DNA from: Acidobacteriota bacterium
GTDB lineage: Bacteria; Acidobacteriota; Vicinamibacteria; Vicinamibacterales; Fen-181
NCBI GenBank assembly: GCA_017883185.1
Contig: JADGOB010000006.1
Coordinates: forward strand, 2,283-66,282
Reading direction: 5' to 3'
Length of the DNA: 64,000 bases
The notes below the pieces were generated by a model. The model was not told where the DNA came from, searched no databases, and was given only the letters and a program-made list of their open reading frames with translations. Positions 2,873-63,227 of this stretch are shown here, piece by piece (position 1 is the first letter of the stretch; each line of letters begins with the position of its first letter). The position numbers and the translations under genes were made by a program.

Positions 2873-2935
2873 CCCCTGACCCCTGACCCCTAACTCCTAA
2901 CCCCCGATCCCCGATCCCTGCCCCCTGATCCCTAT
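2873..2935. repeat. heptanucleotide tandem array, 9 in-phase units (CCCCTGA family)
   Basis: Direct read: cccctga cccctga cccctaa ctcctaa cccccga tccccga tccctgc cccctga tccctat. It fills the junction between the upstream gene's stop (2932-2934) and the GT9 start (2864). Confidence 0.95.
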
Positions 2936-6520: not shown

Positions 6521-7548
6521 AGGATGCCGGCCAGGTCCTCGGGAACGGGGTTGAGATATCGGGCCAGGTGCTCGCGGTAGAACGCGATGGTCCGCTCGAA
6601 CCCTTCCCGGAGCGAGACCTTCGGTTCCCAGCCCACGGCCGCATTGAACTTGCTGGAATCGGCGTAGAAGTTGCCGATGTCAATCGCTTTCTTCTCGGCG
6701 GGCCACTCGACGAACGTCACCCGCCCGGCGCCCGCCAGGTCGAGCAGCAGGGCGACGAGTTCCCGGTGGCTGATCGGCGACTGGCCGCCCACGTTGAACG
6801 CCTCTCCGTTGCACGCGTCCGACGCGCCCGCTCTCAGGAAGGCGTCGGCCGCATCATCGACGTAGACGAAGTCGCGAAGCTGCGAGCCATCGCCGTAGAT
6901 CTGGATCTCGCCGCCCTCGACCGCCGTGCGGATGAACCAGCCGATGAATCCCTGTCGGTTGTGCTTGACGAGCTGCCGCGGGCCGTAGACGTTGGTGAGT
7001 CGCAGCGAGCAGGCGCGGATGCCGAAGACGTGGTTGTACAGCAGGTGGTAGTTCTCCCCCGCCGCCTTGTTGATGCCGTTGACATCCGTTGGGCTCACCA
7101 GGTGCCGCTCGGTGACCGGCAGGAAATCGGGCTTCCCGTACACCTGGCGCGTGCCCGCGAACACCACCCGCACGTCCGGGTTGTGCCGACGGCACGCCTC
7201 GAGAATCGACAACTGGCTGCGGCAGTTGATCTCGAGGTCCGTGTACGGATCCCGCATGCTGTCGATGTGGCTCACCTGCCCGGCGAGGTTGAAGATGACC
7301 GCCCGGTTCCGCACCAGGTAGTTCATCGTGCTCTCCTGGCGGATGTCCGCGACGTTCACCCTCACGCGGTCTTCGATCCCCTGGATGTTGAAGAAGTTGC
7401 CCCCGTAGTCCGGGATCATCGAGTCCACGAGCAGGACGTCGGCGCCCAGCTCCACCAGCTGGCGCGCGAGGTTGCTGCCAATGAAGCCCAGACCGCCGGT
7501 GATCATCACCTTGCGGTGGCGGTAGAAGGATCGATAGTCTGCGGTCAC
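6517..7548 (-). CDS. extended SDR, NAD-dependent epimerase/dehydratase family (atypical active site)
   Basis: ORF track, 343 aa. Rossmann motif ITGGLGFIGSNL. At the position expected for YxxxK the sequence reads NGINK (nt 7066-7080). GTGA overlap with the upstream GT2. Confidence 0.85.
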   Translation of the reverse strand: MTADYRSFYRHRKVMITGGLGFIGSNLARQLVELGADVLLVDSMIPDYGGNFFNIQGIEDRVRVNVADIRQESTMNYLVRNRAVIFNLAGQVSHIDSMRDPYTDLEINCRSQLSILEACRRHNPDVRVVFAGTRQVYGKPDFLPVTERHLVSPTDVNGINKAAGENYHLLYNHVFGIRACSLRLTNVYGPRQLVKHNRQGFIGWFIRTAVEGGEIQIYGDGSQLRDFVYVDDAADAFLRAGASDACNGEAFNVGGQSPISHRELVALLLDLAGAGRVTFVEWPAEKKAIDIGNFYADSSKFNAAVGWEPKVSLREGFERTIAFYREHLARYLNPVPEDLAGIL

Positions 7549-11685: not shown

Positions 11686-12546
11686 CTACTCCCGTCCTTC
11701 GAAGCGGAGTGCTGCGATCTGCTCGGACACCAGTCCCATCAGGAACACGATCACGCCGAGCATGATGAGGAGCACCGAGGAGTTCGTCACGTGCGACTGC
11801 GTGGCGATGGTCCACATGGCGTAGCCGAGGCCGACCGCGAACGATGCGAGGCTGACGGGCAGGAACACGCGCAGCGGGCTGAAGATCGTGACGACCTTGA
11901 GCACGATCAGGGAGAACTTGGCGCCGTCGCGCAGCAGCCGGATCTTCGACTGGCCCACCCGCAGGCGCGCCTCGACCGGCTCGAACACCACGTTGTAGCC
12001 CGCTTTGATGAAGGCCAGGGTCGTGGTCGTCGGCGCCGAGAACCCGTTGGGCAGCAGGTGGATGAACTCGTGGAGGTGCTGCCGCCGCGCGGCGCGAAAC
12101 CCGGACGTCAGGTCGGGGATTGGCCGGCCCGTCAGGTACGAGGCGAGGCCGTTGAGCAGGTGGTTGCCGAGACGCCGGGCCACGGTGGCCTGCGTGGCGT
12201 GCGCCCGCGCGCCGACCACCAGGTCGTAGTCGCCGAGCCGCGACACGAGGCGCGTGGCGTCCGCCGGCTGGTGCTGCCCGTCGGCGTCGATGATCAGCAC
12301 GTACTCGCCGGTCGCTTCGCGGATGCCGCTCTTCACTGACGCGCCGTTGCCCTTGTTGTACGGATGGCGGACCACCCGCGCGCCGGCGGCCTGCGCCGCG
12401 GCGCTCGTGGCATCCGTCGACCCGTCGTCCACGACGAGGATCTCGTGCCACGCGGCCGATCGGCGCAGCCCCGAGACGACATCGGCGATGTCGTCGGCCT
12501 CGTTGAAGGCGGGGATCACGACGGACGTCTGTTCGGGTGACGCCAC
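11686..12546 (-). CDS. GT2 glycosyltransferase with C-terminal transmembrane helices (GtrB / bactoprenol-glycosyltransferase-like)
   Basis: C-terminal 286 aa of track ORF 11686..13308, from GTG 12546 (VASPEQTSVVIPAFNEADDI...VVDDGSTDAT...IDADGQH), with two C-terminal hydrophobic helices. The upstream part of the ORF is Arg-rich junk overlapping the next gene. Confidence 0.8.
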   Translation of the reverse strand: MASPEQTSVVIPAFNEADDIADVVSGLRRSAAWHEILVVDDGSTDATSAAAQAAGARVVRHPYNKGNGASVKSGIREATGEYVLIIDADGQHQPADATRLVSRLGDYDLVVGARAHATQATVARRLGNHLLNGLASYLTGRPIPDLTSGFRAARRQHLHEFIHLLPNGFSAPTTTTLAFIKAGYNVVFEPVEARLRVGQSKIRLLRDGAKFSLIVLKVVTIFSPLRVFLPVSLASFAVGLGYAMWTIATQSHVTNSSVLLIMLGVIVFLMGLVSEQIAALRFEGRE

Positions 12547-22782: not shown

Positions 22783-22824
22783 GGGGATCGGGGATCAGGG
22801 ATCGGGGATCAGGGATCAGGGATG
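22783..22824 (+). repeat. heptanucleotide tandem array, 6 units (GGGGATC/AGGGATC), ending in the murD ATG
   Basis: Direct read: ggggatc ggggatc agggatc ggggatc agggatc agggATG. It occupies almost the whole murF-murD spacer. Confidence 0.95.
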
Positions 22825-33643: not shown

Positions 33644-34542
33644 TGCTCCGCCTCGAACCGCCGAGATCGCCGGGACGGCCGTCAACGAACGGATTTGTCT
33701 GGACGAGGGAGTCGTGGGGCACGGCGCTGCGGTGCGCGTCCCTGACGGAGGTGGCGGATCACTTCTTCACGACCCGTCAACTGCGGTTGCGGGGAGCGTC
33801 GGAACCGGACGACTGGGCGCATGTGGCCTCGACGATCGGGGTGACACCGGGTCGCCTGCTCCGCCTGACCCAGGTCCACGGCCACCGCGTGGTCGTGGCA
33901 CGCCGCCCGGAATCGGCAGGCCGCCCCGGATCGGCCAGCCTGCCTTTGCCGGAAAACGGGAGCACCTCCAGCAGGAGCGGGCACGACTGGCCCGAGGCCG
34001 ACATCCTGGTGTCGGACGACCCGGAAGTGGCCCTGGCCATCCAGGTGGCTGACTGCGTGCCGCTGCTCATGGCTGACCGTCGCTCTGGCGCGGTGGCGGC
34101 CGTCCACGCCGGCTGGCGGGGAACGGTGGCTGGTGCCGGGCCTGCCGCGGTCGATGCGCTGTCGCGGGAATTCGGCGCACGTCCCGAGGACCTCCTCGTG
34201 GCTCAGGGACCGAGCATCGGGCCCTGCTGCTACGAAGTGGGCGGCGACCTGCGCGGTGCCTTCGAAGAGAGCGAATTCAGGACGCACATCGACCGATGGT
34301 TCTCGCGCGGCGCGGACGGTCGTTTCCTGCTCGACCTGTGGACGGCCAACCGCGACCAACTGCTCGCGTCAGGCGTGCGCCCGGACGCCATTCACCAATC
34401 GGGTCTCTGCACCGCCAGCCACCCTGACTTGTTTGCATCGTATCGGCGGGACGGGCCGGGCACGGGTCGGATCGCGGCGGTGGTCCGAAGCCGGGGGCTC
34501 TCAGGTGAAAGTGAGAATCGAGGATTGAGAATCGAGGATTGA
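33643..34542 (+). CDS. pgeF: peptidoglycan editing factor PgeF / YfiH (Cu-oxidase_4, DUF152)
   Basis: Track ORF 33253..34542, trimmed to ATG 33643 (TGATG overlap with acpS). QVHG, ADCVPLL, HAGWRG and C..S motifs. The last codons are encoded by a heptamer array. Confidence 0.85.
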   Translation: MLRLEPPRSPGRPSTNGFVWTRESWGTALRCASLTEVADHFFTTRQLRLRGASEPDDWAHVASTIGVTPGRLLRLTQVHGHRVVVARRPESAGRPGSASLPLPENGSTSSRSGHDWPEADILVSDDPEVALAIQVADCVPLLMADRRSGAVAAVHAGWRGTVAGAGPAAVDALSREFGARPEDLLVAQGPSIGPCCYEVGGDLRGAFEESEFRTHIDRWFSRGADGRFLLDLWTANRDQLLASGVRPDAIHQSGLCTASHPDLFASYRRDGPGTGRIAAVVRSRGLSGESENRGLRIED

Positions 34543-34554
34543 AGATCGACGACC
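34513..34554. repeat. heptanucleotide array, 6 units (GAGAATC/GAGGATT)
   Basis: gagaatc gaggatt gagaatc gaggatt gaagatc gacgacc. It overlaps the pgeF stop (34540-34542). Confidence 0.95.
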
Positions 34555-34599
34555 GCTGCTGTCCAAGCCGGTCACCTGGAGGCGGCCGCGCGCTCGGCC

Positions 34600-35895: not shown

Positions 35896-35971
35896 TGGTG
35901 GGCCCACCAGGATTCGAACCTGGGACAGGCCGGTTATGAGCCGGCGGCTCTGACCGCTGAGCTATGGGCCC
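35896..35971 (-). tRNA. tRNA with CAT anticodon (elongator Met, or Ile2 if lysidine-modified), CCA encoded
   Basis: 76-nt cloverleaf folded by hand: acceptor GGGCCCA/TGGGCCC, D-arm GCTC-AGCGGTCA-GAGC, anticodon arm GCCGG-CTCATAA-CCGGC, T-arm CCAGG-TTCGAAT-CCTGG, ACCA end. The G1-C72 pair argues against an initiator. Confidence 0.9.
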
Positions 35972-36077
35972 CAAACGATGACGTGCTCGGAGCGACGCGG
36001 CCAGTCGCGCTCCCGGCGCCGCAGCGACGGGACGAACCGGGCCATGAACAGTCTACCCCCTGCCGGGGTCGCCGCCA

Positions 36078-36120
36078 ACGGAAACCGTGGACGGAAACCG
36101 TGGACCCAAACCGTGGACGG
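36078..36120. repeat. 13-nt direct repeat x3 (ACGGAAACCGTGG) plus a partial fourth
   Basis: acggaaaccgtgg acggaaaccgtgg acccaaaccgtgg acgg. It lies in the 400-nt spacer between the tRNA (minus) and the blaI-like gene (plus). Confidence 0.9.
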
Positions 36121-36373
36121 GGCCGTCCGCGGGCCGGATGCCGCCGGGTATCGTCGCCATGGCGCGGCTCGGCCATGCCTAGGCGTGCTCCCAGCGCCAC
36201 CCGGGTTCACGGCGAGATCTGTGGTCTGCTGCGCGTGCGCGCTGGTGGTCGGGAACGCGCGAAAGGCGGCCTGACCGGCTCATCCTCACTCCGCACGTGA
36301 ATCCACCCGACCCGCCGTGGGCGCGGGCGAGCCTCGCGCGGCGGTGAAGTATACTCGTCATCGGTCACTCAGC

Positions 36374-36757
36374 ATGATCCACACCCCTCTGCGACCCACC
36401 GACGGTGAACTCATGATCCTGCGGGTCCTCTGGCACCGCGGGCCGAGCACTGTGCGACAGGCTCACGACGTGCTCGAGCGCGACCGGCCGACCGGCTACA
36501 CCACGGTCCTGAAACTGCTGCAGATCATGCACGAGAAAGGGCTGGTCCTACGGGACGAGTCTGAGCGCCGCCACGTCTACCGTCCGCGCGCGTCCGAGCA
36601 GCAGACCCAACGGCAGCTGGTGCGTGATCTCGCGGATCGGGCGTTCGACGGATCGATCGCACGGCTGGTCCTCCAGGCGCTCGCCGTCAGGCGGCCGAAC
36701 CGCGAGGAGATGGCCGATATCCGGGCCGCTCTGGCCGAGGCCGACCCCGAAACGTAG
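36374..36757 (+). CDS. BlaI/MecI/CopY-family winged-helix repressor (orphan; no adjacent sensor gene)
   Basis: Track ORF 36317..36757, trimmed to ATG 36374 ([31 protein letters not shown]...[18 protein letters not shown]...). The palindrome AGTATACT (36348-36355), which includes a TATACT -10-like box, lies upstream. Confidence 0.8.
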
Positions 36758-36872
36758 CCTACGGTCCTTGGGAGGCACGCACGAGACGGCCGCGAGGTCC
36801 GCCTCACGCCGCAAGAACAGGCCGGGTACAAGAAAAAGGCGCTGACAGGGTGTGCCCCATCGGCGCCCTTGG

Positions 36873-37062
36873 CAACCGCCCCGTCCTCGTCAGCACCGCC
36901 CCGTCCTCGTCAGCACCGACCCGTCCCCGTCAGCACCGACCCGTCCCCGTCAGCACCGCCCCGTCCTCGTCAGCACCGACCCGTCCTCTCGTCAGTTCCG
37001 CCCCGTCCTCGTCGGCACCGACCCGTCCTCGTCAGCACCGACCCGTCCCCGTCAGCACCGAC
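36873..37062. repeat. 20-bp minisatellite, about 9.5 tandem copies, two alternating variants
   Basis: Units caccgCcccgtccTcgtcag and caccgAcccgtccCcgtcag (one 21-nt, one 22-nt and one diverged unit). The array ends 2 nt before the rpoD stop codon (37065-37067). All three plus-strand frames are open across it. Confidence 0.95.
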
Positions 37063-37064
37063 TA

Positions 37065-38747
<1,683 letters not shown>

Positions 38748-45668: not shown

Positions 45669-45717
45669 ATTCTGACTTCTGAATTCTGTCTTCTGACTTC
45701 CGACTTCTCCCTCCTGC
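45669..45717. repeat. heptanucleotide array, 7 units (ATTCTGA/CTTCTGA family)
   Basis: attctga cttctga attctgt cttctga cttccga cttctcc ctcctgc, followed directly by TATAAT (45718-45723), 11 nt before the lepA ATG. Confidence 0.95.
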
Positions 45718-55942: not shown

Positions 55943-57289
55943 TTGAGCGACCGCCGCTCTCTGACGGACTGGGAAGCCGACGGCTTCACGCCGGAGGCGC
56001 ACCTGCCAGTGCGGGTCTCGCTGCTGCGCTGGAAACTGGGCCGCAAGGCCAAGCAGGAACCGGGGTTCCGATTCTACAACCTGTTCGGGCACGTGCTGCG
56101 GGCCGACGTGCTGACGGCGGCCAGTCAGCGCGTGCGAGCGAACAAGGGCGGGCCGGGCGTGGATGGCGTCACCTGGGCGACCATCGATGCTCAGCCGGGA
56201 GGGGAGACGGTGTGGCTGGAGGCCCTCGCGGAGGACCTGCGGCGGCACCGCTACCATCCCCAGCCGGTCCGTCGCGTCTACATTCCGAAGGCCGATGGCC
56301 GGCCGCGGCCGCTGGGGATTCCCACGGTCCGCGACCGGGTGGCGCAAGCCGCGGTCCTGCTGGTGATCGAGCCGATCTTCGAAGCGGACTTCGAGGCGTG
56401 CTCGTTTGGCTTCCGCCCGGGGCGGTCGGCCCACCAAGCGCTGGACACGCTGCAGGTGGCCATCAAGGCCGGACGCACCGAGGTCTACGACGCGGACCTG
56501 TCGAGCTACTTCGATACGATCGACCACGGGCGGCTGATGGCGCAGCTCCACCGGCGGATCACCGACAGCGGCGTGCTGCGGCTGATCCGTCTGTGGCTGC
56601 GGTGTCCGATTGCCGAAGAGGACGGCGACAGCGGGACCCGCCTGACGCGTCCCACGCGCGGGACGCCCCAGGGTGGGGTCATCTCGCCGCTGCTGGCCAA
56701 CGTCTATCTGCACGACTTCGACCGCGCCTTCCACGGTCCCGACGGCCCGGCCCAGTTTGCGAACGCGCGGCTGGTGCGGTACGCCGATGACTTCGTGGTC
56801 GTGGCGCGGTGGATGGGGTCGCGCGTCGTCGGTTGGGTCGAGACGATGCTCGAACAGCGGCTGCAGCTCACCATGAATCGGACCAAGACACGGGTAGTAC
56901 GATTGGGAGACCCGGGCACGTCCGTGGATTTTCTGGGGTTCACGCTGCGCTTCCTGCGTGACCGCCACGGACGGCCGCATCGCTATCTCGCGGTCGGCCC
57001 GTCGGCGCGCGCCAGTCAACGCCTGCGCGAGAAGGTGCGGGCGCAGATTGGGTGCGGCTTCAACGGGTCGCTCGCGGCGGCCATCGCGGCCGTCAACGCG
57101 TTGCTGCGCGCCTGGAAGCCCTACTTCGCGTACGGCTATCCCCAGGTCGCGTTTCGGGACCTCAATCATTTCACCCGCGAACGGTTCGGACGCTTCTTGC
57201 GTCATCGGAGTCAACGACGGGCCCGGCCCTTTCGGCGGGGCGAGACGCTCTACGCGGGGTTGCACCGCTATGGCTTTCGTCCGCTGTGA
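55943..57289 (+). CDS. group II intron reverse transcriptase/maturase (no endonuclease domain evident)
   Basis: ORF track, 448 aa. TTG start 7 nt after GGAGG. RT blocks: GVDGVTW, RRVYIPKADGRPRPLGIPTVRDRVAQ, GTPQGGVISPLLANVYL, and VRYADDFVVV (YADD). Maturase X region LLRAWKPYFAYG. Confidence 0.93.
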   Translation: MSDRRSLTDWEADGFTPEAHLPVRVSLLRWKLGRKAKQEPGFRFYNLFGHVLRADVLTAASQRVRANKGGPGVDGVTWATIDAQPGGETVWLEALAEDLRRHRYHPQPVRRVYIPKADGRPRPLGIPTVRDRVAQAAVLLVIEPIFEADFEACSFGFRPGRSAHQALDTLQVAIKAGRTEVYDADLSSYFDTIDHGRLMAQLHRRITDSGVLRLIRLWLRCPIAEEDGDSGTRLTRPTRGTPQGGVISPLLANVYLHDFDRAFHGPDGPAQFANARLVRYADDFVVVARWMGSRVVGWVETMLEQRLQLTMNRTKTRVVRLGDPGTSVDFLGFTLRFLRDRHGRPHRYLAVGPSARASQRLREKVRAQIGCGFNGSLAAAIAAVNALLRAWKPYFAYGYPQVAFRDLNHFTRERFGRFLRHRSQRRARPFRRGETLYAGLHRYGFRPL

Positions 57290-57340
57290 CCGGTCCGTCC
57301 ACAGCTCTCTGCGTCTGCCCTGTGGCGAGAGTGTGTCGGT

Positions 57341-57412
57341 GAGCCGGATGCGGGAAATCTGCATGTCCGGTTCGAAGAGGGGGAGGGGAATCAACCCCCC
57401 TCCCTACTCGAC
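57341..57412 (+). ncRNA. group II intron domains V and VI (catalytic hairpin and branch-site helix)
   Basis: DV: GAGCCGGAUGCGG-GAAA-UCUGCAU(GU)CCGGUUC, with the AGC triad and a 2-nt bulge. DVI: GGGAGGGG-loop-CCCCUCCC with bulged A57406 and a terminal AC. Confidence 0.85.
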
Positions 57413-58661: not shown

Positions 58662-58726
58662 GGCCATGCTGCGCCGTGCCACCCAGGACCGGCGGATCTC
58701 GCCCGTCCTACCGCGCGCTCACGGCC

Positions 58727-58754
58727 GTCAGCCGTCAGCCGCAAGCCGTCAGGC
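58727..58754. repeat. heptanucleotide array, 4 units (GTCAGCC family)
   Basis: gtcagcc gtcagcc gcaagcc gtcaggc, abutting the S9 peptidase stop (58757-58759). CGCAAGCCG (58740-58748) is complementary to CGGCTTGCG in the 58634 array. Confidence 0.9.
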
Positions 58755-62697: not shown

Positions 62698-62764
62698 CAA
62701 GGCGGCAGGTGGAAAGGCGGGAAGGCGGGAAGGCGGCAGGCGGAGGGCGGACGGCGGAAAGGCT
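62698..62764. repeat. G-rich 7-8-nt tandem array (RRGGCGG units)
   Basis: caaggcgg caggtgg aaaggcgg gaaggcgg gaaggcgg caggcgg agggcgg acggcgg aaaggc, in the divergent spacer between the GH27 and blaI genes. Confidence 0.85.
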
Positions 62765-62852: not shown

Positions 62853-63227
62853 ATGAGACCAACCAGCGTGACGCTGACGCCCCAGGAACTCGAGCTGATG
62901 AAGATCGTCTGGCACAAAGGCGAGGCGACGGTGCGAGACGTCTACGAGACGCTGCTCGAGCGCCGCAAGATCGCCTACACCACCGTGATGACGATGATGC
63001 GGGTGCTGGAGAAGAAGGGGCACGTCAAGACACACCGGGAGAACCGGGCGTTCGTCTACCGGCCGACGCGTCCCGAGCGCCAGGTCGTCCGGTCGATGGT
63101 TCGCGAGTTCGTCGATCGCGTGTTCAACGGGTCCGCGCAGCCGCTTCTCGTGCACCTGGTCGAGGACCGTCGGTTGTCCCCGCAGGAACTCGAAGAGCTG
63201 GAGCGCCTCATCCGCGAGGCTGAGTGA
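62853..63227 (+). CDS. blaI: BlaI/MecI/CopY-family transcriptional repressor
   Basis: ORF track, 124 aa. ELELMKIVWHKGEATVRDVYE...AYTTVMTMMRVLEKKGHV. Translationally coupled (TGATG) to the downstream M56 sensor. Confidence 0.88.
   Translation: MRPTSVTLTPQELELMKIVWHKGEATVRDVYETLLERRKIAYTTVMTMMRVLEKKGHVKTHRENRAFVYRPTRPERQVVRSMVREFVDRVFNGSAQPLLVHLVEDRRLSPQELEELERLIREAE

Follow-up and report, generated by a model that had tools for sequence, protein, structure and literature searches.

Intergenic arrays of head-to-tail units of tens of bases, bracketed by unique conserved flanks, are typified by the VNTR/MLVA loci (e.g., MIRU-VNTR of Mycobacterium tuberculosis). The copy number of these loci varies between close strains, their units are homogenised within each allele, slippage or unequal recombination is presumed to act on them, and they are used for typing. 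REP/BIME elements are likewise extragenic, lie just past stop codons, are carried in 3′UTR transcripts as RNA stem-loops and sometimes occur in tandem. REPs are imperfect palindromes at the DNA level, present in many dispersed copies and linked to RAYT transposases. Iterons and centromere-like repeats are rows of 19–22-bp direct repeats. A further group is formed by the G-rich heptamer SSRs and the cyanobacterial STRR heptamers, which are found less than 50 bp past stop codons with the G-rich strand being the coding strand, and which vary in length and sequence. Rehm et al. (2015; PMC4692102) described post-stop repeats of this kind, GGGNATC in Xanthomonas and GGGGA(C/T)T in Nostoc, that are G-rich on the coding strand and vary in length between close relatives; no function was assigned to them.

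The minisatellite described here resembles all four groups in part. It differs from MIRU-VNTR by its 20-nt unit, by its occurrence at one known place, where it directly adjoins the rpoD stop codon ahead of a putative terminator, and by lacking small ORFs or start/stop overlaps. Unlike REPs, it is made of direct repeats, is self-complementary only through G.U pairs on one strand and was found at one locus in the data searched. Unlike iterons, it has no replication or partition genes nearby, lies in a putative chromosomal 3′UTR and ranges from 1 to 10 copies. It departs from the G-rich heptamer SSRs by its period of 20 rather than 7, by the absence of a canonical G-quadruplex motif and by not belonging to a set of hundreds of dispersed arrays. 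The locus was analysed within a 64-kb stretch of DNA (the window) from an uncultured soil Vicinamibacterales (Acidobacteriota): a search with the RpoD protein found 8000 homologues, and those that carry a source name come from Vicinamibacterales/Acidobacteria MAGs. The features of the region are:

37065..38747, minus strand: rpoD, primary sigma-70 factor of 560 aa (ORF and Pfam)
36876..37062, minus strand: minisatellite (unit parse on the rpoD strand)
36830..36870 (core 36868..36838), minus strand: predicted intrinsic terminator of rpoD (RNA folds and conservation)
36413..36757, plus strand: orphan BlaI-family repressor gene (PF03965 Penicillinase_R, E = 7e-22)

RpoD has the Pfam domains Sigma70_r1_1/r1_2/r2/r3/r4 (scored on an identical protein). 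Its gene ends with a TAA codon at 37067..37065, and the next in-frame codon is TAG. The array starts 2 nt past this stop codon. It lies between rpoD and the convergent BlaI-family gene, and in both respects the original prediction agrees with the coordinates. Tandem Repeats Finder (TRF) assigned to the array positions 36875..37062, a period of 20, 9.3 copies, 89% matches, 2% indels and a score of 288, while the next-best tandem array of the window has a score of 79. A degenerate 20-mer matched the window eight times, always within the array, against 0.07 matches predicted from shuffled sequences. Parsing of the rpoD strand yielded nine full units, eight of 20 nt and one of 22 nt (GGCGGAACTGACGAGAGGACGG), followed by a partial unit GGCGG at 36880..36876. 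The units start on the minus strand at 37062, 37042, 37022, 37002, 36980, 36960, 36940, 36920 and 36900, and their consensus on the rpoD sense strand is G[T/G]CGGTGCTGACG[A/G]GGACGG. These are thus head-to-tail copies of a unit within the 10–100-bp range of VNTRs, close to the 20-bp minisatellite of about 9.5 copies that had been predicted. The 22-nt unit that had also been proposed was recovered, while no 21-nt unit was found in the parse. Substitutions said to travel in pairs along the array do so only loosely (the sense-strand combinations are A..G in four units, G..T in three and A..T in two), and this linkage gives weak support at best to the proposed duplication of two-unit blocks.

Units abut directly, with no spacers between them, so that the array is not a CRISPR, as had been recognized. 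The plus strand of the array contains 53.5% C and 20% G; the rpoD sense strand is accordingly G-rich (53.5% G). On the plus strand the array has no stop codon in any of the three frames, an openness previously described as artificial that is explained by composition. Its sense strand has a TGA in each unit, so that every frame meets a stop within three units. A coding repeat is excluded by these TGA codons and by the length differences between alleles, which are multiples of 20 nt and not of 3.

Read on the minus strand, the end of rpoD (AGA ACG TAA) is followed by a TA spacer, the nine units, the partial GGCGG, TTGCC and a stem-loop. This stem-loop, GGGCGCCGAUGGGG-CACA-CCCUGUCAGCGCC, has a predicted ΔG of about −23 kcal/mol (−23.4) and precedes the U-tract UUUUUCUU (36837..36830). 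GC-rich and followed by a U-tract on the transcribed strand, it folds as a convincing candidate for the intrinsic terminator of rpoD. It was absent from the output of a simple terminator scan and of a DNA inverted-repeat search because of its bulge and G.U pairs. On a plus-strand transcript it is much weaker because the stem uses G.U pairs. The terminator is kept in all conspecific contigs, and three relatives (L006, L128 and L129) have an equivalent hairpin and T-run. Because the terminator comes after the array, we infer that the repeats are located in the 3′UTR of rpoD, between stop codon and terminator, which is also where the original prediction had put them; they would then form the 3′ tail of the rpoD transcript.

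Copy number was compared within the species using seven independent metagenome contigs, four from ENA (L001–L004) and three from JGI (L118, L119 and L121). They are 96.5–99.7% identical to the window at the DNA level and carry the array in the identical slot in all seven cases. The four ENA contigs, for which this was checked, encode an RpoD 100% identical to that of the window; the three JGI contigs share with the window the last 21 nt of rpoD. The alleles are:

L121: 1 unit, complete allele
L002: 2 units, complete allele
L001: 4 units, complete allele
Window: 9 units, complete allele
L119: 10 units, complete allele
L003: at least 3 units, contig breaks within the array
L004: at least 7 units, contig breaks within the array
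L118: at least 8 units, contig breaks within the array

The array is essentially the sole length difference between the ENA contigs and the window. In L002, for example, the flanks diverge from those of the window by about 0.3%, but there are 2 units versus 9. Even a one-unit allele exists with otherwise near-identical flanks (identity of RpoD itself refers to the four ENA contigs). This allele belongs to L121, a more divergent JGI contig with further indels besides the array. Polymorphic copy number (1, 2, 4, 9 and 10 units) between conserved unique flanks makes the locus, close to certainly, a genuine hypervariable VNTR, and the span of 1 to 10 units among conspecific contigs bears out the hypervariability and the use in strain typing that had been suggested.

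An artefact of assembly, the first alternative to be considered, could draw on the three short-read contigs that stop within the array and on the exact counts above about 7 units, which rest on short-read assembly and are provisional for these longest alleles. Against it, the array occupies the identical site in seven independent assemblies from two data sources. L118 and L119, which come from different JGI data sets, are 100% identical across 263 nt including 8 units, and the sub-order of units 3–5 in L004 matches the window. The short alleles measure 27–87 nt. The names of the ENA contigs imply k = 141, which exceeds the length of the L001 and L002 alleles, and each of these is therefore spanned by single k-mers; the argument applies to these two contigs, L121 being a JGI contig. 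Comparison of independent assemblies, which had been named as a possible refutation of the array, effectively refutes the artefact, to which we assign a negligible probability. The array is a known reason why contigs of short-read metagenome assemblies break at rpoD.

A second length-polymorphic repeat region was observed in this species. L121 (about 7205..7210) lacks about 88 bp present at positions 34503..34589 of the window. The missing stretch includes 2.7 copies of a 14-nt repeat, TGAGAATCGAGGAT, overlapping the 3′ end of a Cu-oxidase_4 (YfiH-like) gene. Neither L001 nor L002 differs from the window there.

The rpoD arrays of the species fall into two allele lineages. In the first, TAATA is followed by units GCTGACGAGGACGG; in the second, TAAGG is followed by units GCGGACGACGACGR (four in L001, one in L121). 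Units are homogenised inside each lineage while the flanks differ by only 1–2%, and we therefore conclude that the array undergoes concerted evolution, its repeats turning over much more rapidly than point substitutions accumulate. In the one-unit allele, TAAGG-GTCGGTGCGGACGACGACGG-GTCGGTTGCC, a GGTCGGT direct repeat, 20 nt apart, brackets the single unit. A direct repeat bracketing one unit is a classical seed for slipped-strand mispairing.

The explanation that we find likely is that of a strain-variable minisatellite at a single locus, seeded by an old direct repeat and driven by slippage, that is nearly neutral in a permissive slot of the rpoD 3′UTR. The array would have been born from a short direct-repeat seed such as the one seen in the one-unit allele, and would then have been subjected to continual expansion, contraction and homogenisation by replication slippage or unequal recombination. 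Near-neutrality is deduced from variability only. No particular length or unit sequence is required, and the array therefore most likely has little, if any, effect on sigma-70 expression. A natural VNTR of this kind offers a strain-resolving marker, beside a universal single-copy gene, in a soil lineage that is uncultured and abundant worldwide.

The slot between the rpoD stop codon and the next feature was also read in eleven species-level relatives whose RpoD is 87–93% identical. L122, a different species (rpoD 88% identical at the DNA level, protein about 92–93%), carries an array of roughly 10 copies of a related 19–21-nt unit that starts 4 nt past a TAG stop codon. It is composed of GTCGGGACTGACGATAGTCA, one GTCGGACCTGACGCAGTCA and four GTCGGACCTGGCGCAGTCA, then 20–22-nt variants, and its units have in common with those of the window the core GTCGGnnCTGRCG. 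No BlaI-family gene is found near it. Other slots hold shorter periods. L006 has GGAGTCG/GGAGTCA repeats with a period of 7/14, closing with GTCGGTTGGG ahead of the terminator. The window array closes like that of L006, with a unit start and then TTG (GGCGGTTGCC); in L001, L002 and L121 the closing sequence is GTCGGTTGCC. The slot of L128 contains 4.5 copies of AGGRCTC followed by the terminator. In L005 (RpoD 93% identical; 11690..11770), TAGTGGC-type heptamers are followed by three inverted copies, GCCACTA, an arrangement that could form one long tandem-repeat hairpin. A single TCGGGACTCA is present in L129, whose RpoD shares 98% identity with that of L006. No repeat array was found in the rpoD slot of L007, L123–127, L130 and L129.

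From these slot differences we consider that the seed region (GTCGG/GGACTCA-like) is probably older than the species. It would have been amplified with periods of 7, 14, 19–21 or 20 nt depending on the lineage and been lost or never expanded elsewhere. A related array in two species and tandem repeats in about five of the eleven lineages could also reflect selection instead of a permissive site. The database also contains an RpoD entry of 650 aa (P0005) with an exact internal duplication of about 90 residues in regions 3–4, probably an artefact of assembly or collapse, which was set aside as irrelevant to the array.

Selection could act on the RNA. The unit core GUCGGUGCUGAC is self-complementary only via G.U pairs, so that on the sense RNA, and not on the antisense, adjacent units can pair into 12-bp stems closed by 8-nt loops. 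Unit cores would thereby stack into stem-loops on the tail of the rpoD mRNA, a structure that is strand-specific because its pairing depends on G.U. Folding relative to shuffled sequences gave:

Window, 286 nt with flanks: sense z −4.8, antisense z +2.0
Window, array only: sense z −4.1, antisense z +2.8
L002 array: sense z −2.1, antisense z 0.0
L119 array: sense z −1.85, antisense z +2.7
L001 array: sense z −0.08, antisense z +1.7
L122 array: sense z −3.3, antisense z −1.55

The sense RNA folds better than shuffles in four of the five arrays, and the antisense folds worse in the window species. Excess sense-strand structure is thus common and not conserved across alleles: the search for RNA structure that had been recommended found it in some alleles and not in L001. 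The 12-nt core is better conserved than the remainder of the unit. Among its 14 distinct variants the dinucleotide at the centre (the loop) is freely variable (TG, AA, GA, AC, GG), and two stem changes preserve pairing (U9→C and A11→G). Pairing is broken by U2→G in 15 of the 51 units and by U9→G in five of the 51 (window species). This pattern hints at an RNA hairpin, of which it is no proof.

Such stem-loops, beginning 2 nt past the stop codon, might act in cis to modulate termination and ribosome release or 3′→5′ mRNA decay, copy number setting the dosage of sigma-70 in a contingency-type locus acting on a housekeeping regulator. Liang, Rudd and Deutscher reportedly observed in 2015 that, in E. 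coli, ribosomes stall and expression drops when a REP hairpin lies no more than about 15 nt from a stop codon. The excess of sense folding in the window, L002, L119 and L122, the core GUCGGnnCUGAC kept in two species with its variable loop and two pair-preserving changes, and the strand-specificity of the G.U-dependent pairing speak for a tunable RNA. These observations are offset by the four-unit allele of L001 that lacks excess structure, by the frequent U2→G and the five U9→G changes that break pairing, by one-unit alleles that occur with an equally conserved terminator, and by close relatives without any repeat; furthermore, the terminator hairpin already supplies a 3′ protective structure. 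We regard this explanation, the main rival of a nearly neutral array, as unlikely. Its stronger form, in which a selected, copy-number-tunable RNA module sits on the sigma-70 mRNA with the core GUCGGnnCUGRC maintained in at least two species, is more doubtful still. If it were true, slippage would allow global transcription capacity to vary heritably and reversibly within populations of soil Vicinamibacterales, and a locus tuning sigma-70 levels by copy number would be an unusual case of contingency on a core housekeeping regulator.

The functions previously proposed, namely termination, mRNA stability, protein or sRNA binding and Rho utilisation, are unsupported or stay conjectural. A role of the repeats in termination finds no support in partition-function folding of the RNA up to the U-tract: the mean probability of the terminator pairs is 0.85–0.97 in all five complete alleles, copy number leaving the predicted fold unaffected. 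Two decoy functions were also rejected. An anti-terminator or decoy could be imagined by eye from the pairing of 12 of 13 positions between a unit and the 3′ arm of the terminator, but the terminator pairs keep the above probabilities in every allele. A CsrA-type decoy was considered for the GGA motifs. There is about one GGA per unit, as expected from composition; it shifts from loop to stem in L001 and is missing from one unit of L002.

The convergent BlaI-family gene suggests two functions on the opposite strand or on the DNA itself. This gene codes for 114 aa as called on conspecific contigs, its ORF can be extended to a GTG at 36317, and no evident intrinsic terminator was found in its own direction ahead of the array. 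The plus strand of the array might be a Rho-loading (rut-like) pad that stops transcripts of the BlaI-like gene before they enter rpoD in antisense. Its high C and low G content and its lack of structure (folding worse than shuffles by +1.7 to +2.8 in the longer alleles of the window species and 0.0 in L002) fit a putative rut site, and the shared hairpin depends on G.U pairing and lacks a T-run when read on the plus strand. One- and two-unit alleles (27–47 nt) coexist, however, with this same BlaI-like gene, and the array of L122 has no such neighbour and a weak skew (38% C and 30% G on the antisense strand). We give a Rho pad little credence.

Half-site-NN-half-site is the layout of BlaI/CopY-type operators, and it is resembled by the cores GTCGG-NN-C(C/T)GAC, on which a BlaI-family dimer, for instance, could bind in an iteron- or operator-like array at the DNA level. 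The 19–22-bp period is close to two helical turns, and in one unit the palindrome is perfect (GTCGGTGCCGAC). At the DNA level, though, most cores lack such symmetry, and the inverted-repeat search was empty. Copy number spans 1 to 10, and L122 carries its array without a BlaI-family gene nearby. A protein-binding array is, to our judgement, very improbable. A better operator candidate exists upstream of the BlaI-like gene. Between tRNA-Met and this gene (36078..36120), a 13-nt unit, ACGGAAACCGTGG, is repeated 3.3 times with the dyad ACGG-N3-CCGT, and we propose it as a candidate operator array for the BlaI-family repressor. The segment from the rpoD terminator to the tRNA-Met/CT398-family gene (35896..37064) appears as an insertion hot spot when compared with L005, L006, L007 and L122–L130. 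Depending on the relative, it contains nothing, a BlaI-family gene, a methyltransferase block, a TonB receptor with a two-component system, HipA, or peptidases.

The repeat is confined to its slot in the data searched. No second copy of the unit is present in the 64-kb window. When the window and about 100 kb of related loci were searched with the degenerate core, its matches elsewhere were single and scattered, and the only clusters lay in the rpoD slot. A scan of 185,579 GTDB representatives (one genome per species) with the exact pattern GKCGGTGCTGACGRGGACGG found no array and 110 single chance matches in unrelated GC-rich taxa. The search for the 20-mer that had been advised, applied here to the window, related loci and the GTDB representatives, thus ended with one locus, and a dispersed element was rejected: all 110 matches are single and no second cluster exists in the window or the relatives. 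Rfam 15 had no match in the region at gathering score; in E-value mode only 15-bit chance matches to an archaeal snoRNA model (gathering score 42) were returned. The DNA inverted-repeat search of the region found no imperfect palindrome of about 35 nt like those of the dispersed REP/BIME elements.

Short tandem repeats are abundant in this DNA. The window has 12 tandem arrays with a TRF score of at least 50, against 0–3 in dinucleotide shuffles, and this abundance of short intergenic repeats points to a slippage habit of the whole lineage that is not specific to rpoD. Several of the arrays are heptamers found after stop codons:

2873..2933, minus strand: TCAGGGG/GGGATCA, 8.7 copies, after the TAG of an ORF ending at 2932
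22784..22823: GGGATCA, 5.7 copies, in the gap between the stop codon of a Mur-ligase gene (22768) and the murD ATG (22822)
58724..58752: TGACGGC, 4 copies, abutting the stop codon of an S9 peptidase gene
11745..11764 of L007 (RpoD 87% identical): GGGATCA, 2.5 copies, directly after the stop codon of a TonB-receptor gene

The G-rich strand of the post-stop heptamers of the window and of L007 is the coding strand. We know of no report of GGGNATC-like post-stop repeats in Acidobacteriota, and no papers came up in a literature search on Vicinamibacter tandem repeats. The window thus carries G-rich heptamers (GGGATCA, TCAGGGG) at positions like those of the known SSRs, and in relatives the rpoD slot itself is occupied by heptamers. 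The rpoD minisatellite also starts within 50 bp of its stop codon with the coding strand G-rich, and looks like the long-period extreme of a lineage-wide habit of post-stop repeats. Vicinamibacterales would then join Xanthomonas, heterocystous cyanobacteria and Beggiatoaceae among the bacteria with non-random tandem repeats past stop codons and a G-rich coding strand. An origin of the 20-nt unit by triplication of a heptamer was discarded, its three 7-nt thirds being unrelated by inspection.

This parallel raises the question of whether the array forms G-quadruplexes, as proposed for GGGNATC heptamer SSRs. A G-rich coding strand directly past the stop codon is the preferred site of the Xanthomonas and Nostoc G-quadruplex repeats (PMC4692102), and the window allele has four matches with long loops (up to 12 nt). 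The canonical G3+N1-7 motif is present in no allele, and L119, L001, L002 and L121 have no match even at loops of up to 12 nt; in L001 and L121 the units lack G3 runs in the repeat body. No allele has the heptameric unit (it is 20 nt here) with at least four G3 tracts and short loops of these SSRs. A G-quadruplex function of the array has, in our opinion, a very slim chance of being correct.

Two other heptamer arrays of the window lie upstream of genes. TTCTGAC is repeated 5.6 times at 45670..45708, between a GT2 glycosyltransferase gene and lepA. Its last copies are at the expected −35 position and a perfect TATAAT is found about 25 nt ahead of the lepA ATG, so that the repeat may supply a −35-like element to lepA. 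AAGGCGG (8.3 copies, 62699..62759) is found in an intergenic region of divergent orientation; about 55 nt downstream of it, a promoter-like pair TTGACA ... TACTAAT precedes an ORF at 62853. The window also contains a group II intron (55943..57412), recognized by a maturase ORF with RVT_1 and GIIM domains (55943..57289) followed by a match to the Rfam Intron_gpII domain V/VI model at 57339..57412.
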